64,000 nucleotides of DNA from an uncultured Mageeibacillus sp. (GTDB taxonomy: Bacteria; Bacillota; Clostridia; Saccharofermentanales; UBA5734), in assembly GCA_964528645.1 (NCBI GenBank), contig CAZGSR010000011.1, forward strand, positions 405-64,404. The letters run 5' to 3'. The translations under genes were made by a program, and so were the position numbers. The notes below the pieces were generated by a model, which was not told where the DNA came from, ran no database searches, and worked only from the letters and a program-made list of their open reading frames with translations. How positions within the stretch are numbered: position 1 is the stretch's first letter; every line of letters begins with the position of its first letter. Of this stretch, positions 37,273 through 52,221 are shown one piece after another.

Positions 37273-37383
37273 TTCTTTGAAAAAATCCGCATGAATCCGC
37301 ACGGATCTTGTTGAAAGCCTTGAATGAATCGTCTTTTGACGGTACCTTAAGAAAAGACCATTTTCCCAAGGAGATCATTGACC

Positions 37384-38646
37384 ATGGATGTTCAAATTGT
37401 CGGTGGCGGCTGGTCCGGTTGCGCAGCAGCCATTGCCGCCAGGAAGCAGGGCGTATCCGTCACCTTGCATGAACGGACCGATTTGCTGCTCGGCACGGGA
37501 CTGGTGGGCGGCATCATGCGCAACAACGGTCGTTTCACTTCGACGGAAGAAGCCATCGCCCTCGGTGGTGGTGAATTGTTCGATATCACCGACCAGACTG
37601 CACGCCATCGCAACATCGAATTCCCCGGTCACAAGCATGCGACGCTTTATGACATATCGACCACACCGTCAGCCGTGACCGATTACCTGCTATCGATCGG
37701 GGTCAAGATCGTCTATCATTCCCGGATCGAGAAACTCGTCATGACCAACCAGACGATCCACGCCATCGGCTGCAAAAAGGGCAAAACCTATGCCGGTGAT
37801 GTCTTTGTCGATGCGACCGGCACCGCGGGACCGATGGCTAATTGCAAGAAATACGGCAATGGCTGTGCGATGTGCATCCTGCGTTGCCCGAGCTTTGGCG
37901 GACGTGTCAGCCTGACCGGCCTGGCTGGAGTGACTGAGCTGGTCGGCAAAAAAAGCAGTGGCGCCGTCGGTGCGATGAGTGGCTCCTGTAAATTATTTAA
38001 GGAATCCCTGTCGCCTGAGATCGTAGCTGAGCTCAATGAGAAAGGCGTCGCCCTTGTTCCCGTTCCCCAGAATCTGGTCGAGGATCATCTCGACATCAAA
38101 GCCTGCCAGCAATATGCCCTGGCTGAATTCCGCGACAACATTGTCCTTTTGGACACGGGTCACGCCAAACTGATGTCGCCCTATTTTGAAATCCACCGTC
38201 TGCAGCAGATCCCTGGCCTGGAAAAAGCCCGCTATGAGGATCCGTATTCTGGCGGCCAGGGCAATTCCATGCGCTTTTTTGCCATGGCTCCCCGCGACAA
38301 CACCCTTGCGGTCGAAGGCGTCAACAACTTGTTCTGCGCCGGCGAAAAGGCTGGCCTGCTGGTTGGCCACACCGAGGCCATCGTCACCGGTACCCTGGCT
38401 GGCTACAATGCCGCCCGAGTGGCTAAGGGACTCGAACCCATCGAGCTCCCCCGCAGCCTCGTGATCGGTGATGCGATCGCCTTTGTGCGCGAACAGATGC
38501 AGACTGAAAAGGGCCTCGGTTTGAAATACACCTTCTCAGGCTCGGTCCTGTTCGAGCGCATGCAGGAGCTTGGATCCTATACGACCGACATCCCCACGAT
38601 CCGCCAACGCGTCGAACAGGCAGGCCTAACCGGCGTTTTTGCGTAA
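37384..38646 (+). CDS. FAD-dependent oxidoreductase with GidA/TrmFO-like ends and an internal Cx6Cx2Cx3C cluster; function unknown
   Basis: The ATG at 37384 lies 9 nt after AAGGAGA. It has the dinucleotide motif VQIVGGGWSGCAAAIAA, the Cys cluster CKKYGNGCAMCILRC (37843-37887), and the C-terminal LFCAGEKAGLLVGHTEAIVTGTLAGYNAAR, which resembles GidA/TrmFO. Confidence 0.55.
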   Translation: MDVQIVGGGWSGCAAAIAARKQGVSVTLHERTDLLLGTGLVGGIMRNNGRFTSTEEAIALGGGELFDITDQTARHRNIEFPGHKHATLYDISTTPSAVTDYLLSIGVKIVYHSRIEKLVMTNQTIHAIGCKKGKTYAGDVFVDATGTAGPMANCKKYGNGCAMCILRCPSFGGRVSLTGLAGVTELVGKKSSGAVGAMSGSCKLFKESLSPEIVAELNEKGVALVPVPQNLVEDHLDIKACQQYALAEFRDNIVLLDTGHAKLMSPYFEIHRLQQIPGLEKARYEDPYSGGQGNSMRFFAMAPRDNTLAVEGVNNLFCAGEKAGLLVGHTEAIVTGTLAGYNAARVAKGLEPIELPRSLVIGDAIAFVREQMQTEKGLGLKYTFSGSVLFERMQELGSYTTDIPTIRQRVEQAGLTGVFA

Positions 38647-38667
38647 ATAGAACATTTGGAGGTTTCC

Positions 38668-40041
38668 ATGGCCACAATCGGTACCTTGCACCTCGTCTAC
38701 CTGGTGATGACTCTGTTGATCATCACAGCCCTACTGTTCAAAAAGGAGATTGTCCTGCCTTCTGTGGTCGGTATTTTCCTGATGGGCCTCTTTTTCACGG
38801 GTCATCCGATCAAAGCGATCCAGGTCCTGTACAATGCCCTGGTTGTGGCCGGTGGTGAATTCCTCGGTATCATCGTGGTCATTGCCCTGGTTGTCTCCAT
38901 GACCAAAACGCTGGCCACCATCGGCGCGGACGAGTTGATGATCCGGCCTTTGAAAAACGCCATTCACTCCAATAAAGTCGCTTTTTTCGTCGTCGGCGCG
39001 GTTATGCTGGTCGCCTCCTGGTTCATCTGGCCTTCTCCGGCTGTGGCCCTTGTCGGGGCGCTGCTTCTGCCTTTTGCCCTGCGCGCCGGTTTGCCGGCGA
39101 TCTGGGCTGCTGTTGCCATGAACCTGTTTGGCCACGGCATTGGCCTCTCGAGTGACTTTTTCATCCAGGGAGCCCCTTCAATCACCGCCAAATCAGCAGG
39201 CATTGGTCCGACCGATATCATGGTTGCCAGTGTACCGATCTGGCTTGTCATGTCGGTTGTCACCATTGCCGTCGCCTTTGTCATGTTCCTGCAAGATCTC
39301 AAGAAAAATCCGCAGATGGCTGTGGTTGACCTGGCCGCAACCGAATCCGAATCCAAAGTCAAAATCACGACTTTTTCCTATGTCATGGCTGTGGTCACAC
39401 CCCTGGCCTTCGTCCTCGACGTCTTTTTCATGATCACCCTCAACATCGTCGGTGGCGATGCCACCGCCCTGGTCGGTGGTACCGCGATCCTGATCATGAC
39501 CGCCATCCTGATCGGCAAGGGAGACCTGATGGATTCGCTCGATGAAATCACCGACAAATTCAAGGAAGGCTTCATCTTCGCCATCAAAATATTTGCTCCG
39601 GTCATTGTCATTGGCGGGTTCTTCTTCCTCGGCAGCGGTGAAATCGCCGCCAAGATCATGGGTGAAGGCGCCCCTAACATCCTCAATGACTATGGTATGT
39701 ACTTGGCTGGCATCGCACCGCTGGCCAAATTCCCGGTCGTCATCATCCAGGCTCTGATCGCTGTTGTCACCGGCCTCGATGGCTCCGGCTTCTCTGGTCT
39801 GCCCCTCGTCGGCTCACTCGCCCAGACCTTCTCCGTCGCCACCGGTGCCAACATCGCTTCACTGGCTGCTCTCGGCCAAGTCATCACCATCTGGGTCGGC
39901 GGCGGTACGATCATTCCCTGGGGTGTCATCCCTGTGGCAGCCATCTGCAATGTCAAACCCGCCGACCTCGCCCGCAAAAACCTCATCCCAGTCCTTTCCG
40001 GCCTCGCCGCCGCTGTCATCGTCACGATGTTTCTGGTGTAA
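38668..40041 (+). CDS. Polytopic membrane transporter of undetermined family
   Basis: The ATG at 38668 follows GGAGG. The ~457-aa protein is hydrophobic throughout, with at least 10 TM segments. I saw no motif I can assign to a family with confidence. Confidence 0.55.
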   Translation: MATIGTLHLVYLVMTLLIITALLFKKEIVLPSVVGIFLMGLFFTGHPIKAIQVLYNALVVAGGEFLGIIVVIALVVSMTKTLATIGADELMIRPLKNAIHSNKVAFFVVGAVMLVASWFIWPSPAVALVGALLLPFALRAGLPAIWAAVAMNLFGHGIGLSSDFFIQGAPSITAKSAGIGPTDIMVASVPIWLVMSVVTIAVAFVMFLQDLKKNPQMAVVDLAATESESKVKITTFSYVMAVVTPLAFVLDVFFMITLNIVGGDATALVGGTAILIMTAILIGKGDLMDSLDEITDKFKEGFIFAIKIFAPVIVIGGFFFLGSGEIAAKIMGEGAPNILNDYGMYLAGIAPLAKFPVVIIQALIAVVTGLDGSGFSGLPLVGSLAQTFSVATGANIASLAALGQVITIWVGGGTIIPWGVIPVAAICNVKPADLARKNLIPVLSGLAAAVIVTMFLV

Positions 40042-40215
40042 AAAAGACAACCAACCGCTTTGTAACATTTGTCCACTGAAATTGTCATGAATAATTAGCT
40101 TTTCTGTCACATGAATGTACGTCCAGTCGCTTTATGATGAATGTGACTGCATGGATCCGAGCCACTGCCCGTCTGCCGCCCTGGCAGGCTGGAGTGACGT
40201 TCCTGCCAGTTTGTC

Positions 40216-43200
40216 GTGTGGGCAAACTGGAGACGCGAAACGACTGGAGACAGAATTGTGAAAACTGAAAAGGAAGGTCTTGTTCCGGACAACGAAATTG
40301 ATCGCCTGTTTTGTCATCGGCAATACCCACTGACATATCCTCAAAGGGGGGTTTGGTATCTTGAGAAGATCAATCCAGATACCGGCATTGGCAATCTGGC
40401 GGTCACTTTGAAATTCAACCAAGTCATCGATTACACAACGGCAAATCAGGCTGTAAACTTGCTTCTGGCGCAAAATGAGGGATTCAGGACCAGGATCCGG
40501 GAAAATCCCGATGGCGAAGTCACGCAATATTTTGCTCCTTTTGAACCCTATGTCATGCCGCGCTTCGATTTTAGCCTGGTCGACAGAGAAATGCTTTACC
40601 AATGGGACCGGACGGAAGTTCGCCGGCCCTTTGAACTGGACCATAATCTATATTATTTTGCATATGTCAAAATCGACAGCCAGTCTTCTGCCTTGTTTAT
40701 GCGTTTTCATCATCTGATTGCCGATGCCTGGTCCTTTGTCCAGATCGGCAATGACCTGATGGCATTTTATGACCGGTTAAGTGATGGTCGGGGGGTCAGT
40801 GAACCGGAAAACCCACCCTACCGTGATTTCATCCAATCGGAACAATCGTATATCGGATCTGAACGGTATCACCTGGACAAGGAATTCTGGAGCAACCAGT
40901 TTTTGACTTTGCCGACTTTGACTACCTTGAAAACTCGTACATCAGAACGGATTGGTTTGACTGCCAAGCGGCGCAGCTATGCGTTACCGGAGAAGCTGAC
41001 CAGCAAGATCCGGGACTATTGTCATGAAAACCGGACTTCGATTTTTGCGCTGTTTTTTGCAGCCATGAGTATCTACATCAACCGGATCAAGGACCAGGAT
41101 GACATCGTGATCGGAACACCAGTCCTTAACCGTTCCAATGCCAGGGAAAAGCGGACGATCGGCATGTTTATCAGTACCGTTCCCTTGCGGATCAAAATTG
41201 ATCAGCACCTGACCTTTCAAGAATTCTCCCGCAAGCTAGATGCATCCTGGTTTTCTGTGCTCAAACATCAAAAATACCCTTACGACCTTCTCCTCCGTGA
41301 CGTCCGGGAATCTTTCCCTGATGTAGAGAAGCTTTTTGATATTGCCATCTCATACCAAAATGGCAAAATCAACCGCAGCCAGGAGGGCCTGGCAGGCAAC
41401 GCCGAGGTGCGCTGGCATTTCACAGAACACCAGACCGAAGCTTTGTATCTGCATATCAATGAGCGAGAAGGGGAGAGTCAGATTCTCCTCAATTATGATT
41501 ATCTGGTCGATCTATTCTACGCCAAAGAAATCGACTATATCCACGACCATATGCTGCGCTTGCTCTGGCATGCTCTGGATAATCCGCAACGACCGATCAG
41601 CCAGATCCATATGCTTTCCGAGAAGGAACGCTACAAGGTTTTGACCCTGTTTAACCAGACAAACGCCGAGTATCCGAGCAGCCAGACGGTGACCGGATTA
41701 TTTGAAGCCCAGGTCGATCGTTCGCCGCATTCTCCGGCAGTCGTCATCGGCAAAAAATCATACACGTATGATGTTGTGGATCAAATGGCTGAAAGGGTCG
41801 CCAGAGAACTCCGGCAGGCAGGTGCCAAGAGAGAATCAATTGTCGCTCTTTTTATGCAACCATCCTTGACCATGATTGTCTCTATCCTGGGCGTATTGAA
41901 GGCCGGTGCTGCTTATCTGCCCATCGATCCGGACTATCCGACCGAGCGGGTTTCATATATGCTGGAAAATTCTGGCGCCAGGATCCTTTTGCAAGGAACA
42001 CGTACAAGTAGTCCGACTGGATTTGATGGGACCATTCTCGATGCGTCCGCCATTGTGGCGAATGCATTACGCCAAAAAGCCAATGGATTGCGCTTGCCAA
42101 GGCAGAACTCACTCATTGAACCGTCGAATTTACTGTATGTTATCTATACTTCAGGATCGACTGGCCGCCCCAAAGGCGTCATGATTGAACACCGCAATGT
42201 TGTCCGGCTGCTCTTTAATGACCGTACACCGTTTGACTTTGGCCCGCAAGATTGCTGGACTTTGTTCCACTCGTATTGTTTTGATTTTTCGGTCTGGGAG
42301 ATGTATGGTGCACTTTTGTATGGCGGTCGTCTGGTCATTGTCCCTAAGCCAGTCGCCCGGGATACACAGGCTTTCCGCAAATTGCTGATTGATCAGCAAG
42401 TGACCGTTTTAAACCAGACGCCAGCTGCCTTTTACAACCTGGCGGACCAGGAAGTCCAGAAATCCGGTTCTGAGCTCTCTGTCCGCATGGTCATTTTTGG
42501 TGGAGACGCCTTGAAACCTCAGCTGCTCAGAGCCTTTCACGCTAAATATCCTCATGTGCGCCTGGTCAACATGTACGGAATTACGGAAACGACCGTCCAT
42601 GTCACCTATATTGATCTCAAAGACACTGACCTCCAAAATGGCACCTCCAATGTAGGACGACCCATTCCGACAATGCGTGTCTATATTCTGGACAAAAATC
42701 TCAATCCGATGCCGATAGGAGCTCCCGGTGAGATCTTTGTTAGCGGTGCTGGTGTAGGACGTGGCTATTTGAATAATCCTGAGCTGACAGCAGCCCGGTT
42801 CATGCCCAGCCCATTCGAACCAGGCGAAAAACTCTACCGGTCTGGCGACCTGGGCCGGTTCTTTCCAGAAGGCGATATCGAGTATCTGGGCCGGATCGAT
42901 CATCAGGTCAAAATCCGAGGACACCGGATCGAGCTGGGTGAAATCGAGTCAGCCATTCTCGAACACAACCGGATCAAATCCGCCCGGGTCCTGACAGTGG
43001 AAAACGGACAAGGCAATAAGCAGCTGATCGCCTACTTTGTGCCTGCGCAGCCGATCACCCTCCATGAGCTGCGGGCTTATCTGACCAAGCTGCTGCCGGA
43101 ATATATGATCCCAACGTTCTTTGTTGCCCTGGACCGGATTCCACTCAACAGCAATGGTAAAATCGCCCGGGAAAAATTGCCTGGCCCTGATTTTGACTTG

Positions 43201-44262
43201 GCGCTGGTAGCCGAATCGACACCGCCGGCCACCGAGCTCGAAATCAGGATCGTTGCAGCATTTTCGGAAGTCTTGGAATGCTCGGGAATCGGTCGTGAGG
43301 ACCACTTCTTCCGATTGGGTGGGGATTCACTGAGTGCAGCCAGGCTGGTTGCCATCCTTGGTGATCCGGTGACCTTTGCTGATTTGTACAGTCATCCAAC
43401 GGTCCGGGATCTGGCGCAATTCATGCTAAACCAGTGTTCAGACCGCCCGGGCAGCTTGCTGGTACTCCGTCAATCCTGCGCGCTGAAACACTTGGTCATA
43501 TTTCCCTATGCCGGTGGAACTGCTGCGACCTGTCTGGCCCTCAGCCAGCAAATCAGCCAGCTGACGGATGACCTGAATGTGATTGCGGTCAATTTGCCGG
43601 AGCAGCGTTTGCCACAACATGCGATGGCCGAGACAATTGCCCATGAACTGAAGCAGGAATTGATGGGTGAACTCTATATTTACAGCCATTGTGCTGGTTC
43701 CAGCCTGGCGATTGAAACCGCTCTGCTGCTGGAAAAGATGGGCCGTCCACCGGTTTCGGTTCTGGTCGGTGCCTCGTTACCGCCTTTTGCGTTCGCCTCG
43801 CACAAATCGATCGTCTCGCCGGTCGCTTTGATCCGGCAGGGTCTCAATCGTTTGCTGGCAAATCCCTGGCGTTACCTGAGCGATTCATCATTGCTGAAAA
43901 TCCTCTTGTCAATTGGTCTTCGCACTGGCGACATACAACCGGAGCAACAAGAAAATATGATCCGCTGGTTTCGCCAGGATGCGGCAGAATTTTACGACTT
44001 TTTCAACCGGAAACAGCACGAAGCTCGGCTGGATCCTGATTGCATGAGGTTGTCAGCGCCCATTCATTGCATCGTTGGCGACCAGGACCCTGTCACGATG
44101 GGGGCCAAACGACTGTATCAACGCTGGAATCGATTCTCAAACCAGGTGGATTTGACGATTATTCCGCAAGCTGGACATTATTTCCTCAGTGCCCAGGCCA
44201 GCGAACTGAGTCAATGGATTTTGCAGATCATTGACCGTACTGCCGGTGACCGGCATGATTAA
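40216..44262 (+). CDS. Single-module nonribosomal peptide synthetase, C-A-T-TE
   Basis: C domain: HHLIADAWS. A domain: LLYVIYTSGSTGRPKGV, NMYGITETT, YRSGDLGR, GRIDHQVKIRGHRIELGEIE and NGKIAREKL. T domain: FFRLGGDSLSAARL. TE domain: LVIFPYAGG, YIYSHCAGSS, IVGDQDP and QAGHYF. The likely true start is the GTG at 40258, 7 nt after GGAGA. Confidence 0.9.
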   Translation: MWANWRRETTGDRIVKTEKEGLVPDNEIDRLFCHRQYPLTYPQRGVWYLEKINPDTGIGNLAVTLKFNQVIDYTTANQAVNLLLAQNEGFRTRIRENPDGEVTQYFAPFEPYVMPRFDFSLVDREMLYQWDRTEVRRPFELDHNLYYFAYVKIDSQSSALFMRFHHLIADAWSFVQIGNDLMAFYDRLSDGRGVSEPENPPYRDFIQSEQSYIGSERYHLDKEFWSNQFLTLPTLTTLKTRTSERIGLTAKRRSYALPEKLTSKIRDYCHENRTSIFALFFAAMSIYINRIKDQDDIVIGTPVLNRSNAREKRTIGMFISTVPLRIKIDQHLTFQEFSRKLDASWFSVLKHQKYPYDLLLRDVRESFPDVEKLFDIAISYQNGKINRSQEGLAGNAEVRWHFTEHQTEALYLHINEREGESQILLNYDYLVDLFYAKEIDYIHDHMLRLLWHALDNPQRPISQIHMLSEKERYKVLTLFNQTNAEYPSSQTVTGLFEAQVDRSPHSPAVVIGKKSYTYDVVDQMAERVARELRQAGAKRESIVALFMQPSLTMIVSILGVLKAGAAYLPIDPDYPTERVSYMLENSGARILLQGTRTSSPTGFDGTILDASAIVANALRQKANGLRLPRQNSLIEPSNLLYVIYTSGSTGRPKGVMIEHRNVVRLLFNDRTPFDFGPQDCWTLFHSYCFDFSVWEMYGALLYGGRLVIVPKPVARDTQAFRKLLIDQQVTVLNQTPAAFYNLADQEVQKSGSELSVRMVIFGGDALKPQLLRAFHAKYPHVRLVNMYGITETTVHVTYIDLKDTDLQNGTSNVGRPIPTMRVYILDKNLNPMPIGAPGEIFVSGAGVGRGYLNNPELTAARFMPSPFEPGEKLYRSGDLGRFFPEGDIEYLGRIDHQVKIRGHRIELGEIESAILEHNRIKSARVLTVENGQGNKQLIAYFVPAQPITLHELRAYLTKLLPEYMIPTFFVALDRIPLNSNGKIAREKLPGPDFDLALVAESTPPATELEIRIVAAFSEVLECSGIGREDHFFRLGGDSLSAARLVAILGDPVTFADLYSHPTVRDLAQFMLNQCSDRPGSLLVLRQSCALKHLVIFPYAGGTAATCLALSQQISQLTDDLNVIAVNLPEQRLPQHAMAETIAHELKQELMGELYIYSHCAGSSLAIETALLLEKMGRPPVSVLVGASLPPFAFASHKSIVSPVALIRQGLNRLLANPWRYLSDSSLLKILLSIGLRTGDIQPEQQENMIRWFRQDAAEFYDFFNRKQHEARLDPDCMRLSAPIHCIVGDQDPVTMGAKRLYQRWNRFSNQVDLTIIPQAGHYFLSAQASELSQWILQIIDRTAGDRHD

Positions 44263-46141
44263 ATTACTGCTTAATCCAGATTTTGCACTCGTCCTGCTTT
44301 CGATCGCCTTCGTCGTATTTCTGTCGGTGATTGTCTGGCGGATGAAAAATAAGCAGCTGATCCATCACGTGTTCCTGGGCTTGATGGGCTGTCTGTTCAT
44401 CTGGGCCATCGGTGCGATGATCCTGCTGCGCGACAATCTCCTGGGCCATCCGATCCAGATCTGGGCAGTCAATTTCACATATATAGGCTTGATCCTAACC
44501 CCTGTTGCAGCCCTCTATGTAGGTGTGGTTTTTGCCCACAATACGGTCAAACTCAGTCCTTTCCACTTACTGACTCTATCCATACCGTTTCTGTCCCTGT
44601 TCTTGCTCTTTACCAATGAGTATCACCATGTATTCTATAAATTCTATGACTATGCACAGCTGACCTCAGCCAGTGCTCTGGGTTGGTATTTCGTTATCCA
44701 TACTGCCTATTCATACACATGCATTACCATTGGGCTTTCATTTCTGGCGTATTTTTCGATCAAGAATGCCGGTTTTTTCTCCAAGCAGTCTATTTTTATT
44801 CTGACAGGTGTCATACTCTCGTTTGGCTTCAATGCTGCTGTGACCTTCCAAGTCATTCCAGCCAGATTCCACTACACAGTCATTGTTTTATCTTTGTCTT
44901 GCATCTTTTTCTATTTCGCCATATTCAAATATGATTTTCTCAGCATTGTGCCAATCGCACTGCAAAGAGTGGTCGATCATATTTCCGACAGCTTCATGGT
45001 CTTCGATGCAAATGACAACCTGGTCGATTTTAACAAGACTTTCATTGACACGTTCCAGTCTGAGGCCAACATTACGCGAAAAATCACGATCGACACGCTG
45101 GCTGATCGAGTCCGAGGCAACCGCTCCATGTTCAATCTGCTGCGGAAATTCAGGGCCGTTGTTAAGCGACGCATGCGCCTGACCCTGGAAGAAACCCTGG
45201 ATATCAAAGGCCAGAAGCGCTTCTTTTCGATTGAAGTGACGCCTGTCTATAATCAGGGCCGTTTTATCAGCACCATTATTCTACTCAAAGACATCACAGA
45301 AATCCGGGAAGCGCTGGACTCACTGCGCCGCAATCATGAAATGCTGATGGAGAAGGAACGACTTGCTTCGCTGGGTCAATTGATTGGCGGCATTGCCCAC
45401 AATCTCAAGACTCCTATCATGTCGATCTCGGGTGGCATCGAAGGCCTCAAAGATTTGATTGAGGAGTATGAGGACTCGATTGGAGACAGCAGTGTAACGG
45501 CTGAAGACCATCATGAGATTGCTCGCGAGATGCTGGCATGGATTGACAAGATCCGGCCACATTGCACTTACATGTCAGATATCATCACAACCGTGAAAGG
45601 ACAAGCGGCTCAGTTTAATACATCGGACGAAATGACCTTCACTTTGAATGAACTGATCCATCGCGTAGAGTTGTTGATGAAACACGAACTTAAACGCTAT
45701 CACTGTGTGCTCAATATTCACCTCAAGTCCAGTAACATCATCGAATTGAAAGGTGAAATCAACAGCCTGGTCCAGATTTTCGACAACCTGATCATCAATG
45801 CCCTGCAATCCTATGAAGGACGCCAAGGTCAGCTAGACCTGACCATTGAAGAAAATGAGAACCAAATTATATTTATGCTCAAGGATTATGGCAGTGGAAT
45901 ATCACCCTCAGTCCGTGACAAATTGTTCAGAGAAATGGTGACCACAAAAGGTAAGCTCGGCACTGGCCTTGGACTATATATGTCTCACGCAACCATAAAA
46001 GGAAAATTTGGTGGTCGGATGTGGTTTGACAGTGAGCCAGGCAAAGGGACTTGTTTCTTTATAGAACTTCCACTGGCCCGTAGTTATCCAATACCCGCTT
46101 TGACAAGTACACAAAGAAATGGGGTGCCCCGTTATGCGTAA
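44255..46141 (+). CDS. Sensor histidine kinase with an N-terminal 7TM domain and a PAS-like domain
   Basis: The ATG at 44255 overlaps the NRPS stop (ATGATTAA). About 7 TM helices occupy the first ~230 aa, followed by the PAS-like VVDHISDSFMVFDANDNLVDFNKTF. It has the H-box LIGGIAHNLKTPI, the N-box FDNLIINALQS, G1 KDYGSGI and G2 GTGLGL. Confidence 0.85.
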   Translation: MIKLLLNPDFALVLLSIAFVVFLSVIVWRMKNKQLIHHVFLGLMGCLFIWAIGAMILLRDNLLGHPIQIWAVNFTYIGLILTPVAALYVGVVFAHNTVKLSPFHLLTLSIPFLSLFLLFTNEYHHVFYKFYDYAQLTSASALGWYFVIHTAYSYTCITIGLSFLAYFSIKNAGFFSKQSIFILTGVILSFGFNAAVTFQVIPARFHYTVIVLSLSCIFFYFAIFKYDFLSIVPIALQRVVDHISDSFMVFDANDNLVDFNKTFIDTFQSEANITRKITIDTLADRVRGNRSMFNLLRKFRAVVKRRMRLTLEETLDIKGQKRFFSIEVTPVYNQGRFISTIILLKDITEIREALDSLRRNHEMLMEKERLASLGQLIGGIAHNLKTPIMSISGGIEGLKDLIEEYEDSIGDSSVTAEDHHEIAREMLAWIDKIRPHCTYMSDIITTVKGQAAQFNTSDEMTFTLNELIHRVELLMKHELKRYHCVLNIHLKSSNIIELKGEINSLVQIFDNLIINALQSYEGRQGQLDLTIEENENQIIFMLKDYGSGISPSVRDKLFREMVTTKGKLGTGLGLYMSHATIKGKFGGRMWFDSEPGKGTCFFIELPLARSYPIPALTSTQRNGVPRYA

Positions 46142-47714
46142 GCGCAAACAAAATGAAATGTCAAATTTCCGGATCATTGTCGTGGATGATGAGTTCGGTA
46201 TCATCGATTCGCTCTCGGTTGTCCTGAACCGGGGTGGCTATGAGACGGTTGGTGAAACCGATCCTCTGAAAGCAATCGAGCGGATCAAACACGAGCATTT
46301 TGACTTGCTGATCCTGGACTACCTGATGTTCCCGTTGCATGGCGACGAGGTGGTTGAACAGATCCGGATGTTCAACAAAGAGCTGTACATCTTGCTCTTG
46401 ACCGGTCATCGTGATCTGGCGCCGCCGCTGGAAACGATCCGGGCTCTCGATATACAAGGTTATTGCGAAAAGAGCGACAAATTTGACCAGCTGATCCTCC
46501 TGGTCGAGTCCGGCATCAAATCGATCACCATGTTACAGATGATCAAGAAATTCCAGGAAGGACTCAACAAGATCCTCCAGGCGGTGCCCAAGATCTACCA
46601 GCTCCAGCCACTGGGCAGCATTCTGGAAGACATCTTGTCCGAGCTGCTGCCACTGGTCAACAGTGAACATGCCTTTATTCTGGTGGATGATGTCACAGGC
46701 CCGAATGCCGATAAGAAAAGCATTTTCAAAGGGATCGGCCGCTATCACCAGGACGTGGATGTGTTTGTTGACATGCTCCAGCCCAGTTTGATGGAAGAGA
46801 TCGGTTATGCGCGTCTCAACCAGAAGATCGTCCATTTTGACGAAGGTGTCATTTTGCCGCTGAACAATGAACTGATGCAGTCGATCGGGGTGATCTATGT
46901 CGAGAGTCTCGATTTTGGAAATTCACAACTGGATGATGGCATCAAACTGCTGGAAATATATGCTGGCCAGGCGGCTTCGTCGCTGAGCAATGCTTTCCTG
47001 CACTCGATGGTCCACATGAAAAACGAGGAGCTGAACCGTACGTATGACCAGCTCAGGAACGGCTACATGGACACAATCGAGGCGCTGCGCCTGGCGGTCG
47101 ATGCCAAGGATATCTACACCCGGGGCCATTCCGACCGCGTCTCCTATTTTGCAACCCTGATCGGCAAGGCTATGAACCTGCCGCAGGACCAGATTGAACT
47201 GCTGCGGATCAGTGGTTTTTTCCATGATGTTGGCAAGATTGGGACCGGTGACGATATTCTGGCCAAAACAGACCGCCTGAACGATGCCGAATACGAGGAA
47301 GTGAAGAAGCACCCGCTCAAGGGCGCCCAGATTCTATCGGCTGTCTTCATGTTCAAGCAGGTGGTACCGATCGTCCAGTATCACCACGAGCGGATCGATG
47401 GCATGGGTTATCCTCATGGCCTCAGAGGTGAGCAGATCCCGTTCCTGGCCAGGATCATATCCGTTGTTGATGCTTTCGACGCCATGACATCGGATCGTCA
47501 ATATCGCTCGCGCATGGATGTCGAACATGCCAAGAACCAGCTCGTCCAAGGCAGAGGGACCCAGTTCGACAGCCAGGTGGTCGATGTGTTCCTCGGCTTG
47601 CTGGAACGCTATGAAGACATTTTGGCGGACATGGCTGTGTTGAACATCGGCGGCCACGACCCCTACAACCTCACCTTGAGCGCGCCCGTTGCCGAACCAT
47701 TGTCGGCTTCATGA
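46134..47714 (+). CDS. Response regulator with REC, a central GAF-like region and an HD-GYP (c-di-GMP phosphodiesterase type) output
   Basis: The ATG at 46134 overlaps the kinase stop (ATGCGTAA); alternative starts are at 46119 and 46158. REC motifs: IIVVDDE, DLLILDYLMFP and LLLTGH. HD-GYP motifs: HSDRVS, FFHDVGKI and HHERIDGMGYPHGL. There is no DNA-binding domain. Confidence 0.85.
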   Translation: MRKRKQNEMSNFRIIVVDDEFGIIDSLSVVLNRGGYETVGETDPLKAIERIKHEHFDLLILDYLMFPLHGDEVVEQIRMFNKELYILLLTGHRDLAPPLETIRALDIQGYCEKSDKFDQLILLVESGIKSITMLQMIKKFQEGLNKILQAVPKIYQLQPLGSILEDILSELLPLVNSEHAFILVDDVTGPNADKKSIFKGIGRYHQDVDVFVDMLQPSLMEEIGYARLNQKIVHFDEGVILPLNNELMQSIGVIYVESLDFGNSQLDDGIKLLEIYAGQAASSLSNAFLHSMVHMKNEELNRTYDQLRNGYMDTIEALRLAVDAKDIYTRGHSDRVSYFATLIGKAMNLPQDQIELLRISGFFHDVGKIGTGDDILAKTDRLNDAEYEEVKKHPLKGAQILSAVFMFKQVVPIVQYHHERIDGMGYPHGLRGEQIPFLARIISVVDAFDAMTSDRQYRSRMDVEHAKNQLVQGRGTQFDSQVVDVFLGLLERYEDILADMAVLNIGGHDPYNLTLSAPVAEPLSAS

Positions 47715-47801
47715 ATCGCCAATAACCGGAAAACCTCAACCGCGTAGTGTCATCACCCGCTTCAAGGTTTATAATCGAATTAGACCGAACAAAGCGAGGC
47801 G

Positions 47802-48707
47802 ATGGGTATGTTAACAGACAAGCGACTGAATCAGGCTTATCAGTCAGCCAAAGTCCTGGAGTTTGATGAAACGTCCCGCCTGATCTTCTTTTCCGACTGC
47901 CATCGAGGCGATAACAGCCTGTCCGATGAGTTTGCCCGCAACCAGGCCATCTACCAGTACGCGATGGCCTACTATTATTACAACGGCTACACCTATGTCG
48001 AGGCCGGTGACGGCGATGAACTGTGGGAATATGCCCATTTCAAACATATCCGGATTGCCCACAGCGATATTTTCCATACCCTGCAGCACTTCCATGAAGA
48101 AGACCGCATGATCATGCTGTACGGCAACCACAACATGAGTCTTAAGAATAAAGACTATGTCAGGAAAAACCTCCATTACTATTTTGATGAATACAATGAT
48201 GAGGAAACAGTCCTGTTCGAAAATCTGGAGCCCTGTGAGGCTCTGGTTTTGCGTCACCGTGAGACGGGACAAGAAATCCTGACCGTACATGGCCACCAGG
48301 GTGACCTGATGAATGACCAGCTCTGGGTTGTCTCCATGCTGATGATGCGCTATTTTTGGCGCCTGATGCACATCGTCGGTTTCCAGAATCCCTCCAGCCC
48401 TGCCAAAAATGCCCACAAGCGACATAAGATTGAAAAAATGTACAATCGCTGGATTTCTGCCAACCGGAAAATGCTGATCTGTGGCCATACACACCGACCC
48501 AAATTCCCCAAAAGCTCCGACCTGCCCTATTTCAATACCGGGTGCTGCATCCACGCCCGGGGCATCACTGGCATCGAGATATTCGAAGGCAAGATCATGC
48601 TCGTCGAATGGCGGGTCCGCGCCGACAAGGAGGGCAGTCTGCACATCTCGAGGAAAATCATCCGAGGCCCAGAGCCGGTCAGTCGGTATGACAACATATG
48701 GAAATGA
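47802..48707 (+). CDS. Calcineurin-like metallophosphoesterase
   Basis: The motif series is FFSDCHRGD, AGDGDELWE, LYGNHN, VHGHQGD and CGHTHRP. Confidence 0.75.
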   Translation: MGMLTDKRLNQAYQSAKVLEFDETSRLIFFSDCHRGDNSLSDEFARNQAIYQYAMAYYYYNGYTYVEAGDGDELWEYAHFKHIRIAHSDIFHTLQHFHEEDRMIMLYGNHNMSLKNKDYVRKNLHYYFDEYNDEETVLFENLEPCEALVLRHRETGQEILTVHGHQGDLMNDQLWVVSMLMMRYFWRLMHIVGFQNPSSPAKNAHKRHKIEKMYNRWISANRKMLICGHTHRPKFPKSSDLPYFNTGCCIHARGITGIEIFEGKIMLVEWRVRADKEGSLHISRKIIRGPEPVSRYDNIWK

Positions 48708-48823
48708 CCTGCTCGCACACGATGTGAGGTTTTCCCCACTGCTGCGTTAACGGGGGTGCGGCTACCAAAATTGCCCGTTCAAAAAATTTCAATTTTATTC
48801 ATGGTTAAAGGCCGTCAATTTGC

Positions 48824-48852
48824 TTGCTTGTCTGGCGGACGGCCGTTATAAT
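48824..48852 (+). promoter_or_regulatory. Putative sigma-70-type promoter of the decarboxylase operon
   Basis: TTGCTT (48824-48829), a 17-nt spacer, then TATAAT (48847-48852). It lies 82 nt upstream of the ATG at 48935. Confidence 0.45.
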
Positions 48853-48934
48853 TTTGTTGAATATGCTTAACTTTCGCGAAAGGTTCACTGCGATTGGAGC
48901 ATAACAAAGCTTGCCCGACATAAGGAGGTTTCCA

Positions 48935-50311
48935 ATGCAGATCAAATTCACAGAAACTGTCCTGCGCGATGCCAACCAGTCGCTGGTGGCGACCCGCATG
49001 CCGCAGAAAGATTTCATTGACATCCTGGACACCATCAACCAGGCTGGCTACTACTCAGTCGAGTGCTGGGGCGGCGCGACGTTTGACTCCTGCCTGCGTT
49101 TCCTGGACGAAGATCCATGGGAGCGCCTGCGCCTGATCAAAAAACACATTCCCAACTCCAAGCTCCAGATGCTGCTTAGGGGCCAGAACATCCTCGGCTA
49201 CCGTCATTACCCGGATGAGGTGGTCCGACTTTTCGTCCGTCACTCGATCCAGAATGGCATCGACATCCTGCGCATTTTCGACGCTTTGAATGACTTCCGT
49301 AACATCGAGGTCGCGGTTGACGAGACTCTGAAGTGCGGCGGCCACGCCCAGGGCACGATCTGCTACACGATCAGCCCGATCCACAACCTCGAGTCGTATA
49401 TCCGGATGGGCAAGGAGCTCGAGCAGATGGGCGTCCACTCGATCTGTATCAAGGACATGGCCGGGATCATGAGCCCGCAGGAGGCCTTTGACCTCGTCTC
49501 GGCTCTCAAGGCCAACGTCAGCCTGCCGATCGTCGTCCACACCCATTCGACCACTGGTCTCGGCCCGATGACCTATATGAAAGCTGTCGAAGCCGGTGCC
49601 GACTGCATCGACTGCGCCATCTCCTCATTCTCCGGCGGCACCTCGCAACCCGCCACAGAGTCCCTGAACTATGCTCTGAAGCAGATGGGCTACGAGTCCG
49701 GGCTCAAAGAGGACGTGCTCAAGCAGATCAACGATTTCTTCAAGCCAGTCAAAGACAAATACGTCGCCTCCGGCCTGCTCGATCCCTATGTCCTGAGCAC
49801 CGACACCGACGCCCTGACCTACCAGATCCCGGGCGGCATGCTGTCCAATCTCGTCTCCCAGCTCAAGCAGCAGAACGCGATCGACCGCCTGCCCGAGGTG
49901 CTCGCTGAGACCCCGCGCGTCCGGGCCGATCTCGGCTACCCGCCCCTGGTCACTCCGATGAGCCAGATGGTCGGTGTCCAGGCCGCGACCAATGTCCTGG
50001 TCGGCGAACGCTACAAGAACATCTCCAAGGAAGTCAAAGCCTACATCCGGGGCGAATATGGCACCCCACCCGGCACGGTCGATCCGGACCTGATCCAGAA
50101 GGTCCTCGGCGACGAGCAGCCGATCACCGGTCGCTACGCCGAGACACTGGCACCGGAATTCGAGGCCGCCAAGGCCAAGCTGGCTGGCATCGCCGAGAGT
50201 GACGAGGATGTCCTCAGCTACCTGGCCTTCCCGCAGATCGCCGAGAAGTTCTTTGCCAACCGGGCCGAGAAGAAGATCAATCGGGTCTCCTACTCGATCC
50301 GCCAGGTCTGA
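48935..50311 (+). CDS. oadA: Oxaloacetate decarboxylase alpha-type carboxyltransferase subunit lacking a biotinyl domain
   Basis: The ATG at 48935 follows AAGGAGG. It has LRDANQS, SICIKDMAGI and VHTHSTTG (HMGL-like TIM barrel) plus a PYC/OADA-type C-terminal region. It is 458 aa long and ends without an AMKM motif. Confidence 0.8.
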   Translation: MQIKFTETVLRDANQSLVATRMPQKDFIDILDTINQAGYYSVECWGGATFDSCLRFLDEDPWERLRLIKKHIPNSKLQMLLRGQNILGYRHYPDEVVRLFVRHSIQNGIDILRIFDALNDFRNIEVAVDETLKCGGHAQGTICYTISPIHNLESYIRMGKELEQMGVHSICIKDMAGIMSPQEAFDLVSALKANVSLPIVVHTHSTTGLGPMTYMKAVEAGADCIDCAISSFSGGTSQPATESLNYALKQMGYESGLKEDVLKQINDFFKPVKDKYVASGLLDPYVLSTDTDALTYQIPGGMLSNLVSQLKQQNAIDRLPEVLAETPRVRADLGYPPLVTPMSQMVGVQAATNVLVGERYKNISKEVKAYIRGEYGTPPGTVDPDLIQKVLGDEQPITGRYAETLAPEFEAAKAKLAGIAESDEDVLSYLAFPQIAEKFFANRAEKKINRVSYSIRQV

Positions 50312-50324
50312 CAGGGGGAAACAC

Positions 50325-50654
50325 ATGGATATCATCAACAGCCTGTTCACCAGTGTATTTGGCATCAGTGTCGTGTTTGCGGTACTGATCGCCCTGATTT
50401 TACTGATTTACGGGCAGTCATTGGTCATGAAAAAAATGCACAGGGAGAAACCTGCCGAGGTTGTGGTAGAAACAGACAAACCCGCTCCGGTTGCAGCTAC
50501 GACTGCATCAGCTGCCAGTACCACCGTTCCGGGCAAGCTTGAGCTCGTCGGGATCGATGAAAAGACCGCTGCCATGGTCATGGCGATTGTTTGTGACGAG
50601 AGCGGGATTCCTGTCAACGAACTGATTTTCAAATCCATCCGTGAAATTGCCTGA
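50325..50654 (+). CDS. Decarboxylase small membrane-anchor subunit (OadG / gamma-delta type)
   Basis: The ATG at 50325 follows AGGGGGA. It has the N-terminal TM MDIINSLFTSVFGISVVFAVLIALILLIY and an Ala/Thr/Pro-rich linker. It lies between the alpha and biotin-carrier genes. Confidence 0.6.
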   Translation: MDIINSLFTSVFGISVVFAVLIALILLIYGQSLVMKKMHREKPAEVVVETDKPAPVAATTASAASTTVPGKLELVGIDEKTAAMVMAIVCDESGIPVNELIFKSIREIA

Positions 50655-50678
50655 GTGACTGGGCTGAGGAGACAACAC

Positions 50679-51068
50679 ATGAAGTATCAAGTGACGATCA
50701 ATAACAAGACCTATGAAGTCGAAGTCGAACGCGGCGAAGCCAATCTGCTCGCCACCTATGAGGCTGTTGCACCAGTCGCGTCGGTGGCTGCTGCTGCCCC
50801 CACTCCAGTGGCAGCTGCCTCCGCTCCGGCGGCACCGCATGTCCAGGCCGTGGCCGGCGAGGCCCTGACCGCCCCGATGCCGGGCACCATCATCAGTGTC
50901 CTGAAAAAAGTCGGCGACAAAGTCGCTGAGGGCGAAGTCGTCTGCATCCTCGAGGCGATGAAAATGGAAAACGAAGTGGTGGCGGCGATCGCCGGCACTG
51001 TCGGCCAAGTCCTTGTCGCCAAGGGCTCCGTGGTCAAGACCGGCGATCCGCTGGTCATGATCCATTGA
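50679..51068 (+). CDS. Biotin carboxyl carrier subunit (biotinyl domain protein)
   Basis: The ATG at 50679 follows GAGGAG. An Ala/Pro-rich linker precedes the biotinylation motif ILEAMKMENEV. Confidence 0.85.
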   Translation: MKYQVTINNKTYEVEVERGEANLLATYEAVAPVASVAAAAPTPVAAASAPAAPHVQAVAGEALTAPMPGTIISVLKKVGDKVAEGEVVCILEAMKMENEVVAAIAGTVGQVLVAKGSVVKTGDPLVMIH

Positions 51069-51081
51069 TGGAGGACGCCAG

Positions 51082-52221
51082 ATGTTGATCGATACCCTGG
51101 GCAAACTCTGGGGTGACTCCGGGTTTGCTGCGCTCGACCTGCCACATCTGCTCATGATCGTGATTGCCGGTGTCCTGATCTACCTGGCGATCGTCAAGAA
51201 ATTTGAACCCCTGCTCTTGCTGCCGATCGCTTTTGGCATGCTGTTGGCCAATCTGCCAATCACCGGCCTGATGGATGCACCGCCTGCCGATCACAGCGGC
51301 CCGGGCGGATTGCTGTACTATCTGTACCAGGGCGTCAAGCTGGGCATCTATCCGTCGCTGATCTTCCTTGGCATCGGGGCGATGACTGACTTCGGCCCGC
51401 TGATCGCACGGCCCTCGAGCCTGCTGCTGGGCGCGGCCGCGCAGTTTGGCATCTATGTCGCCTTCACCGTGGCTCGGATGCTCGGCTTCACGGTCCAGGA
51501 GGCGGCCTCGATCGGCATCATCGGCGGAGCAGATGGCCCGACGGCGATCTTCCTGACCACGCGACTGGCGCCGGAGCTGCTGCCTGCAATTGCGATTGCA
51601 GCCTACTCTTACATGGCCCTGATCCCATTGATCCAGCCGCCGATCATGCGCGCCCTCACCACCGAGAAGGAGCGCCAGACGGTGATGTCGCAGCTGCGTC
51701 ACGTGTCGAAGTCTGAAAAGATCGTCTTTCCGATCATCGTCACGATCGTTGCTGTCCTGCTGTTGCCATCCGTTGCGCCTCTGATCGGCATGCTGATGCT
51801 GGGCAACCTGTTCCGTGAATCAGGCGTCGTTGACCGCATCTCCCAGACCGCCCAGAACGAGCTGATCAATATCGTTACGATCTTCCTGGGTGTCACCGTG
51901 GGTGCGACGGCCAATGCGGATCGATTCCTGCAATGGGAAACCCTCAAGATCATCGGCCTGGGCCTCTTCGCCTTCGTCTTCAGCACCATCGGCGGCACAC
52001 TGTTCGGCAAGCTGATGTACGTGGTGACCGGCGGCAAGGTCAATCCGCTGATCGGATCAGCCGGCGTCTCAGCGGTGCCGATGGCCGCCCGTGTTTCCCA
52101 GGTCGAAGGGCAGCGGGCCAATCCGAAGAACTACCTCCTGATGCATGCCATGGGCCCCAATGTCGCCGGTGTCATCGGCTCGGCGGTTGCGGCTGGTTTC
52201 CTCCTCGCGATGTTTGGTTAA
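51082..52221 (+). CDS. oadB: Na+-translocating decarboxylase beta subunit
   Basis: This 379-aa polytopic protein contains IGIIGGADGPTAIF and GSAGVSAVPMAARV, typical of the OadB/GcdB/MmdB family. Confidence 0.9.
   Translation: MLIDTLGKLWGDSGFAALDLPHLLMIVIAGVLIYLAIVKKFEPLLLLPIAFGMLLANLPITGLMDAPPADHSGPGGLLYYLYQGVKLGIYPSLIFLGIGAMTDFGPLIARPSSLLLGAAAQFGIYVAFTVARMLGFTVQEAASIGIIGGADGPTAIFLTTRLAPELLPAIAIAAYSYMALIPLIQPPIMRALTTEKERQTVMSQLRHVSKSEKIVFPIIVTIVAVLLLPSVAPLIGMLMLGNLFRESGVVDRISQTAQNELINIVTIFLGVTVGATANADRFLQWETLKIIGLGLFAFVFSTIGGTLFGKLMYVVTGGKVNPLIGSAGVSAVPMAARVSQVEGQRANPKNYLLMHAMGPNVAGVIGSAVAAGFLLAMFG

Follow-up and report, generated by a model that had tools for sequence, protein, structure and literature searches.

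A candidate N-acyl-threonine beta-lactone synthetase of anaerobic Clostridia and its conserved cassette partners, a membrane sensor kinase and a cyclic di-GMP regulator

What does a small nonribosomal peptide synthetase (NRPS) of an uncultured Mageeibacillus species make, and what does its product do? The gene occupies the open reading frame (ORF) at 40216-44262 (+) of the window, by which we mean the whole 64-kb stretch of contig CAZGSR010000011.1 that was analyzed, and it is followed by genes for a membrane-bound sensor histidine kinase and for a response regulator predicted to hydrolyze cyclic di-GMP (c-di-GMP). The evidence points to a synthase of an N-acyl-threonine beta-lactone, which would serve this kinase/c-di-GMP circuit as its cognate signal, a reading to which we assign a probability of about 0.5. 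The cassette suggests a previously undescribed cell-signalling system in anaerobic Clostridia.

The full ORF codes for 1348 amino acids (aa). Pfam placed Condensation at aa 35-474 (E 1.2e-85), AMP-binding at 496-852, AMP-binding_C at 909-982, PP-binding at 1011-1069 and Thioesterase from 1092, and AMP-binding and AMP-binding_C each matched the full length of their models. Translation probably starts at the GTG at 40258 (Table 1), since GGAGA lies 8 nucleotides (nt) 5' of this codon and the nearest homologues are annotated at 1334 aa, 14 codons less than the full ORF. HHLIADAWS of the condensation (C) domain starts at aa 165, and in the thioesterase (TE) YSHCAGSS holds Cys1159, VGDQDP holds Asp1291 and QAGHYF holds His1321. 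The GGDSL motif of the thiolation (T) domain is the most frequent version among the 76 family sequences that were aligned. The ORF, the domain order C, adenylation (A), T and TE, and all motifs and coordinates given in the first-pass annotation of this DNA proved to be exact by Pfam and by reading of the sequence. The motif pattern is not due to chance, since 75 homologues keep identical motifs, and we have little doubt that the gene encodes a complete and apparently active C-A-T-TE enzyme with a predicted threonine-specific A domain and a Cys-dependent TE of the type known from ObiF, the obafluorin synthetase.

The A domain is predicted to load L-threonine. Its pocket residues 690, 691, 694, 733, 760, 762, 786, 794, 795 and 982 read DFWNIGMVHK and agree with the canonical threonine code in 10/10 positions. 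The best PDB match of the pocket segment (aa 682-818) was 5n9w/5n9x (E 8e-29), with FDFSVWE, VLNQTP and NMYGITETTVH identical. The database label of 5n9w reads only 'Adenylation domain', and we take the protein to be the threonine-activating domain Thr1. Both results agree with the threonine code proposed in the first-pass annotation. The pocket motifs of ObiF1 (FDASVWE, VFGQIP and ...TTIN) differ from those of the window.

ObiF1 (6n8e) was found to be the best PDB sequence match of the TE, with HCAG aligned to HCAG, QDP to GGQDP and GHYF to GHYF. At the nucleophile elbow the window sequence YSHCAGSS is aligned to YGHCAGNA of ObiF1, and the classical Asp position is without an Asp in both proteins (VLVGAS in the window, LAIGGM in ObiF1). 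A RifR-like triad geometry, with the Asp at 'position II', has been described for ObiF1 (PMC6668435) and SulM (PMC11298585). The window TE shows the same triad pattern as judged by alignment, namely a Cys elbow, an Asp at position II and a retained His. An AlphaFold2 model of the TE, built on an alignment of 22 family TEs (A1) in which the Cys, Asp and His of the triad are invariant, had a predicted local distance difference test score (pLDDT) of 91.7. When this model was searched with Foldseek, ranks 1-5 were occupied by 8w2c (SulM TE, TM-score 0.80) and 6n8e (ObiF1, TM-score 0.78, root mean square deviation 2.3); the type II TEs RedJ, RifR and YbtT came next, and type I TEs, e.g., Vlm2, were found at rank 26 or lower. 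C1159 had been proposed earlier as the nucleophile of a Cys-Asp-His triad, together with a structural comparison that could refute it; this comparison was run here, and the ObiF1 alignment and the Foldseek ranking bear the proposal out. The catalytic Cys of ObiF has been reported as needed for beta-lactone formation (PMC6668435), and the A domain preceding the window TE is predicted to load a beta-hydroxy amino acid, as this ring-forming type of TE requires.

A homologue search of 5.8 billion proteins returned ~75 relatives of full length that carry the same TE, which gave an alignment of 76 sequences including the window. Relatives with a taxon name were nearly all Clostridia or metagenome-assembled genomes (MAGs) of Bacillota. 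They come as one-module proteins (~1290-1350 aa, 39-99% identity) or as two-module proteins (~2340 aa), and the triad Cys, Asp and His are invariant in all 76 sequences. The terminal A domain carries DFWN[IV]GMVHK in 64 sequences, DFWSVGMVHK in three, the serine code DVWHFSL[VI]DK in five and odd codes in the other four, i.e., it is coded for Thr (67) or Ser (5) in 72/76. Module 1 of the two-module relatives has a mostly Ser-like code. Nearly identical loci are L011, where the TE is 100% identical and the kinase and regulator are 99% identical to those of the window, and metagenome locus L091, which matches the window at 99%.

A profile of the TE run on 1.84 billion representative proteins gave 420 representative clusters at E<=1e-30. 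The nucleophile was Cys in 146 of 149 aligned TEs (the 148 top matches and the window), and 54 of the 92 of these sequences with a complete A domain had a Ser- or Thr-like code. The first-pass annotation called Cys-nucleophile TEs rare. This holds among characterized enzymes but not in sequence space, where, judged by these counts, the ObiF-like TE type is common and only two of its members have been characterized. Beta-lactone release is best argued from how tightly this TE type is tied to codes for beta-hydroxy amino acids, and we rather favor it for the window NRPS. The N-acyl-threonine beta-lactone suggested earlier has gained strength from the family-wide triad and the 72/76 Thr/Ser codes, while the product itself is still reached by inference.

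The three genes of the cassette overlap and have the look of an operon. The ATG of the kinase (44255) overlaps the stop codon of the NRPS (44260-44262) by 8 nt (ATGATTAA), and the ATG of the regulator (46134) overlaps that of the kinase (46139-46141) by 8 nt (ATGCGTAA). Pfam matched the kinase to HisKA_7TM (E 1.3e-31) and HATPase_c (E 4e-20), and the regulator to Response_reg, DUF3369, HD_5 and HD. The best NCBIfam match of the regulator was a response-regulator c-di-GMP phosphodiesterase model, under the curated cut-off. Its motifs VVDDE, LILD, FHDVGK and HHERIDGMGYP are intact and the acidic residues of REC are kept. The REC-DUF3369-HD-GYP architecture and the family carrying it have been defined previously (bioRxiv 10.1101/2021.11.05.467447), and by domains and motifs the regulator fits the RpfG/'RpfY' family of c-di-GMP phosphodiesterases. 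The NRPS had been annotated as standing alone. No other NRPS gene is indeed found near it, but it is translationally coupled to kinase and regulator and belongs to a conserved cassette, both of which were overlooked.

Relatives whose NRPSs are 37-57% identical, and whose flanks are unrelated, show the order NRPS-kinase-regulator on one strand as well, among them loci with a two-module NRPS (L009) and a Ser-coded one-module NRPS (L010). The adjacency holds where NRPS identity is as low as 37-39% and was seen in five or more genomic contexts unrelated to each other. Genomes were scanned with one genome per species, and loci with room downstream were counted. The kinase was located directly 3' of the NRPS in 26/27 informative Clostridia genome loci and was absent at all ~50 non-Clostridia loci with the same TE type (Actinomycetota and two Anaerolineae). 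Isolates with the cassette include Sporobacter termitidis DSM 10068, which has the two-module type of NRPS, and Clostridium lacusfryxellense DSM 14205. Over the 26 non-identical complete cassettes, pairwise identities of NRPS and kinase were correlated with r = 0.95, and mean identity was highest for the regulator (0.65), followed by the kinase (0.49) and the NRPS (0.44).

For the reverse test the sensor region of the kinase was searched in metagenomes, and the upstream side was counted if >2.5 kb was available. NRPS domains were found directly 5' in 26 of 34 kinase loci and the regulator 3' in 31 of 42. Eleven of the 26 upstream NRPSs had an ObiF-like TE. The sibling cassettes with a reductase-ending NRPS (L097, L101, and L121) usually had the same HD-GYP regulator as well, and the link of the 7TM kinase family thus seems to extend from NRPSs of the beta-lactone type to small NRPSs at large.

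A second connection to c-di-GMP was found within the synthetase. In members of ~1850 aa a PilZ domain is fused N-terminally to C-A(Ser)-T-TE(Cys) (L034:3144-8741; L051:3132-8693, from C. lacusfryxellense DSM 14205; and L032:88-5619). The N-terminal extension of ~560 aa consists of PilZ followed by ~330 aa without Pfam match, after which the C domain begins. PilZ scored 31.5 and 27.0 bits against a Pfam cut-off of 22.5, and RxxxR and DxSxxG were found in L034. These NRPSs still have kinase and regulator downstream, and with the fusion there is a tie between synthetase and c-di-GMP that does not depend on gene order. Altogether, the NRPS and the two-component pair are likely to be functionally coupled. 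A fusion of PilZ to an NRPS is unusual in itself.

We propose the following mechanism. The NRPS would load L-threonine onto its own carrier domain, as judged from the specificity code only, and the C domain would N-acylate it with a donor supplied in trans, presumably an acyl-coenzyme A or acyl-acyl carrier protein of primary metabolism. This C domain begins at aa 35 of the ORF, or at ~aa 21 from the probable start, and thus is N-terminal without a carrier domain in cis before it. HHxxxDA is found in every C domain that stands at the N-terminus of a homologue, whether of one module or two, and HHxxxDG in internal C domains. The acyl-threonyl chain would then move to Cys1159, where the threonine beta-hydroxyl would attack the thioester to give an N-acyl-L-threonine beta-lactone; homology, fold and family-wide covariation argue for this step. 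The product or its ring-opened form would be the ligand of the co-translated 7TM kinase, which would phosphorylate the REC-DUF3369-HD-GYP regulator and alter c-di-GMP hydrolysis. The signalling steps are deduced from the conserved linkage, the co-inheritance and the PilZ-NRPS fusion in relatives, and we propose only tentatively, at slightly less than even odds, that the NRPS product is the signal of the kinase. Covalent sensing is conceivable, since the proposed signal is an electrophile. In PilZ-fused relatives feedback on synthesis could be direct. It is a more speculative and as yet doubtful extension that Clostridia at large use NRPS-made N-acyl-Thr/Ser beta-lactones as diffusible autoinducers, read by the HisKA_7TM kinase with c-di-GMP as output through HD-GYP, and with PilZ closing the loop in some lineages.

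A number of points weigh against the synthase of a cognate signal as we describe it. Products, substrates and ligands of the family are all inferred. The window C domain, which the first-pass annotation put at the starter position, scores no higher to solved C domains of the starter type than to those of the elongation type, with 85 bits to 8f7f, 82 to 7c1h and 63 to 4jn3, which we take to be of the starter type, vs. 102 to 7kw2 and 95 to 2jgp, which we take to be of the elongation type. No acyl donor gene is present near the NRPS as judged from the window scan, and tblastn with the Sfp-type phosphopantetheinyl transferase (PPTase) of L009 found no PPTase in the window, so that the PPTase for this NRPS must lie elsewhere in the genome. 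A Pfam scan of the window proteins likewise found no acyl ligase, separate carrier protein, MbtH or other NRPS gene within ~10 kb of the NRPS, and the first-pass annotation was correct in reporting that ligase, carrier protein, MbtH and PPTase are missing nearby. A-domain codes can mislead, as the beta-hydroxy-homophenylalanine A domain of ObaI was predicted as Thr by NRPSpredictor2 (PMC5490192), and a Cys nucleophile is by itself no proof of ring formation, since the Cys TE of AB3403 has no assigned function (PMC11298585). Linkage and co-inheritance show connection and not direction, and the kinase could respond to another stimulus and share no more than expression with the NRPS. One Clostridia locus (L023, a Clostridium sp. 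MAG) has the Cys-TE without the kinase, and eight of the 34 kinase relatives had no upstream NRPS by the domain test, although an ORF with C domain and carrier is present there in L110. Nor is a feedback loop visible in the window, since the domain scan found no DNA-binding domain in the regulator and no Rfam family, c-di-GMP riboswitches included, was found 5' of the NRPS or anywhere in the 64 kb.

These observations leave room for other explanations. The cassette could be the same but its TE could hydrolyze, in which case a linear N-acyl-threonine would be the signal or a membrane-active product. We consider this improbable. RifR, RedJ and YbtT, the next-best fold matches, are type II-like TEs and hydrolases, small NRPS-like systems of Clostridia are known to produce N-acyl amino acids and amides (PMC10871352), and beta-lactones are hydrolytically labile, so that the linear acid would occur anyway. 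On the other hand, hydrolysis leaves the strict Cys instead of the usual Ser and the near-exclusive Thr/Ser pairing unexplained, the top fold likeness is to two ring-forming TEs and not to hydrolases, and ObiF depends on its Cys for the lactone (PMC6668435). An ordinary hydrolytic or editing TE fused to the NRPS was considered as well and ranked low.

It is comparably improbable that the beta-lactone is a covalent warhead, i.e., an antibiotic or an inhibitor of Ser/Thr/Cys hydrolases aimed at competitors or host, with kinase and regulator forming a self-protection or stress circuit. The known N-acyl-alpha-amino-beta-lactones are antibacterial electrophiles, and obafluorin inhibits threonyl-tRNA synthetase (ThrRS) covalently (PMC9880928). 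Kinase relatives also stand by NRPSs of the order C-A-T-reductase (C-A-T-R), which would release an aldehyde, again an electrophile, and this fits a 'reactive product' theme. However, the loci compared keep no gene for resistance (e.g., a second ThrRS), export or immunity with the cassette, the output is second-messenger turnover rather than transport or detoxification, and through the PilZ fusion the synthetase belongs to c-di-GMP signalling and not to a defence island. Whereas the first-pass annotation framed the gene as minimal warhead machinery, we read it as the signal synthase of a sensory cassette with coupled kinase and regulator. That the NRPS is an orphan, as pictured there, with kinase and regulator unrelated and adjacent by chance, is very improbable indeed. 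It would agree with the lack of any other biosynthetic gene within ~10 kb and with two upstream genes that are kept by local synteny only, but is contradicted by the adjacency in at least five contexts, the 8-nt overlaps, the recovery of NRPSs by the reverse search and the r of 0.95.

Table 1. Features of the NRPS cassette and its upstream region (positions in the window)
Feature	Position	Strand	Details
NRPS gene, C-A-T-TE	40258..44262	+	ORF open from GTG 40216; probable start GTG 40258, giving 1334 aa
Condensation domain	40318..41637	+	aa 35-474; HHLIADA, His codons 40708-40713; no upstream carrier or docking domain
Adenylation domain	41701..43161	+	aa 496-982; code DFWNIGMVHK (L-Thr, predicted)
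Thiolation (carrier) domain	43246..43422	+	aa 1011-1069; GGDSL at 1035, predicted phosphopantetheine site Ser1038
ObiF/SulM-type thioesterase	43489..44262	+	aa 1092-1348; Cys1159 TGT 43690-43692, Asp1291 44086-44088, His1321 CAT 44176-44178
Sensor histidine kinase	44255..46141	+	HisKA_7TM membrane sensor, PAS, DHp (H-box AHNLKTP), HATPase
Response regulator	46134..47714	+	REC-DUF3369(GAF-like)-HD-GYP, 'RpfY' architecture; predicted c-di-GMP phosphodiesterase; other ATG at 46119
Intergenic region 5' of NRPS	40042..40257	+	216 nt; ends with GGAGA before GTG 40258; presumed promoter region of cassette
461-aa polytopic membrane protein	38656-40041		No Pfam or NCBIfam match
GIDA/TrmFO-like FAD protein	37378-38646		Directly 5', pair with membrane protein

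The region 5' of the NRPS gave no match on the + strand in a promoter scan (40042..40257), and a scan of 39800-49000 for promoters and terminators gave weak consensus matches only, with no convincing terminator between the three genes. The FAD protein and membrane protein upstream were considered as tailoring or export partners and rejected, as they are absent in L006, L007, L009, and L010. The pair was found beside the cassette (77-99% identity) only in the closer relatives L001, L003, L005, L011, and L014-L016, and is ascribed to synteny because it is more conserved than the NRPS. A metallophosphoesterase gene (47802-48707) located 3' of the cassette is kept there in the closer relatives (76-98% identity). 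It is followed at 48911-52221 by an oxaloacetate decarboxylase alpha-subunit-like gene, and the syntenic L001 continues with the gamma and beta subunits and cobalamin genes. The genes downstream of the cassette look like ordinary metabolic genes. The G+C content is 0.47-0.53 over NRPS and kinase (window 40001-46000) vs. about 0.56-0.58 on both sides. This drop and the differing flanks across lineages would agree with horizontal transfer of the cassette in one piece.

Other loci carry variations of the cassette or of its enzyme. In Peptococcaceae bacterium UBA5757 the two-module relative has a gene for an Sfp-type PPTase directly 5' of it (L009:9114-9767). In L023, a locus of 5359 bp, the genes after the Cys-TE encode an AEC-family membrane transporter, ribosomal protein L25 and a pentapeptide-repeat protein. 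The reductase-ending NRPSs are C-A-T-R with a Ser code in L097:1462-5916 and with a Thr code in L101:1605-5990, and multi-module with the end ...C-A-T-R in L121:811-5886, each followed by the HisKA_7TM kinase at ~6001. A kinase-linked C-A-T-TE with a TE of a different lineage was found at L107:5051-5989; its elbow AGWCIGG has a Cys and its A motif is FDVFVFE, and the GWCIG elbow is shared by P0115. Actinomycetes carry the same Cys-TE type without kinase and regulator. In Streptomyces (L072, L077-L080, and L083) these are single-module proteins of ~1320-1460 aa with the Thr-like code DFWSVGMVHK; the neighbourhood of L077 showed generic dehydrogenases only, among ORFs picked in high-GC DNA. The Streptosporangiales genera Acrocarpospora, Microbispora, Herbidospora and Planobispora have Cys-TE proteins of ~1790-1920 aa with the code DLPKVAEVGK, in which the ORF runs ~480 aa past the TE (L037, L041, L045, L054, L056-L059, L064-L066, L071, L073, L075, L082, L084, and L086-L090).

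We found no published description of this NRPS family, of threonine beta-lactone biosynthesis or of an NRPS-HisKA_7TM-HD-GYP cassette in the full-text literature, in which coverage of subscription journals is poor. If the signal-synthase reading is true, the genes would be assigned to the N-acyl-threonine beta-lactone class of compounds, and ObiF-type beta-lactone chemistry, so far tied to two antibiotic pathways of proteobacteria, would also be found in a large part of the Clostridia that is uncultured. The widespread HisKA_7TM sensor domain would have a first candidate ligand, c-di-GMP signalling in Gram-positive anaerobes would have a new, chemically defined input, and a non-peptide signal resembling N-acyl-homoserine lactones (AHLs) would be added where known quorum sensing is mostly peptide- or autoinducer-2 (AI-2)-based. 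The reductase-type sibling cassettes would then suggest a general small-NRPS/7TM-kinase/c-di-GMP communication system of anaerobic Bacillota. The enzyme alone would be a moderately interesting orphan, and it is the link between predicted beta-lactone synthetase, orphan sensor and c-di-GMP that adds interest; if only the enzymology holds, biocatalysis would still gain a minimal beta-lactone synthetase that is promiscuous for its donor. Direct tests of the hypothesis are possible, since the cassette is compact (three genes, with one 4-kb synthetase and a predictable product) and is present in at least two cultured strains.

Among known enzymes, ObiF/ObiF1 (ObaI), which makes obafluorin in Pseudomonas fluorescens and Burkholderia diffusa (6n8e; PMC6668435), shares the C-A-T-TE core and the Cys-Asp-His TE with the window NRPS. 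The A-T-TE part of ObiF1 aligns with it over ~840 residues (E 6e-165), with a TE identity of ~23%. The A domain of ObiF takes a beta-hydroxy-alpha-amino acid (beta-hydroxy-p-nitro-homophenylalanine for ObiF1) and the product is an N-acyl-alpha-amino-beta-lactone. ObiF differs in having MbtH-like and aryl-adenylation domains and in its need for an aryl carrier protein, the dihydroxybenzoate (DHB) pathway and the transaldolase ObiH, and the window was found to lack all of these; ObiF is also proteobacterial and located in an antibiotic gene cluster, not beside a two-component system. By its domain content the window enzyme appears to be a simpler ObiF-type member, with no MbtH domain, aryl-loading module or transaldolase.

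The TE of SulM, from the pathway of the monobactam sulfazecin (8w2c/8w2d; PMC11298585), is the best fold match and has a Cys nucleophile, a position-II Asp and a constrained lid. In SulM a beta-substituent attacks the acyl-Cys thioester to close a four-membered ring, and the TE has a Gln-Cys-Asn motif and an arginine-rich pocket (PMC11298585), where the window has His-Cys-Ala instead of the motif. The SulM ring is a beta-lactam formed from N-sulfonated 2,3-diaminopropionate on a multi-module NRPS, and its TE is 16% identical to that of the window.

A natural product to be compared is SQ 26,517, the N-acetyl-threonine beta-lactone of a Bacillus species, for which we know of no published biosynthetic genes. 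It belongs to the compound class predicted for the window enzyme and also comes from Bacillota, and a link to this enzyme family is a conjecture. It has been cited beside obafluorin as an alpha-N-acyl-beta-lactone (reference 56 of PMC5490192).

Gut Clostridia also have small NRPSs that end in a reductase and reportedly, in work by Guo et al. in Cell in 2017, make dipeptide aldehydes and pyrazinones. They are close sequence relatives of the window NRPS (with a C-terminal NAD_binding_4), have an N-terminal C domain and one or two modules, and make an electrophilic product. Their release is by the reductase and not by a Cys-TE, giving an aldehyde and not a lactone. The kinase-linked NRPSs of L097, L101 and L121 are relatives of this kind.

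As a signalling system, the cassette is most readily compared with Rpf/diffusible signal factor (DSF) of Xanthomonas, where RpfF is the synthase, RpfC the sensor kinase and RpfG the REC-HD-GYP regulator, and with CqsA/CqsS and the LuxI-type AHL systems. It differs in the HisKA_7TM sensor, the extra GAF-like DUF3369 of the regulator and the Gram-positive anaerobic hosts, and also in its synthase, which is an NRPS, whereas RpfF is a crotonase, CqsA resembles aminotransferases and the AHL systems use LuxI. HD-GYP families have been reviewed elsewhere (bioRxiv 10.1101/2021.11.05.467447). Because threonine and homoserine are isomers, the predicted product is a constitutional isomer of an AHL. As in Rpf/DSF, a synthase gene lies beside that of a polytopic membrane kinase with a receiver-HD-GYP output to c-di-GMP, here deduced from the genes alone, and in its gene neighbourhood and co-inheritance the cassette shows the pattern of an autoinducer synthase/sensor kinase pair.

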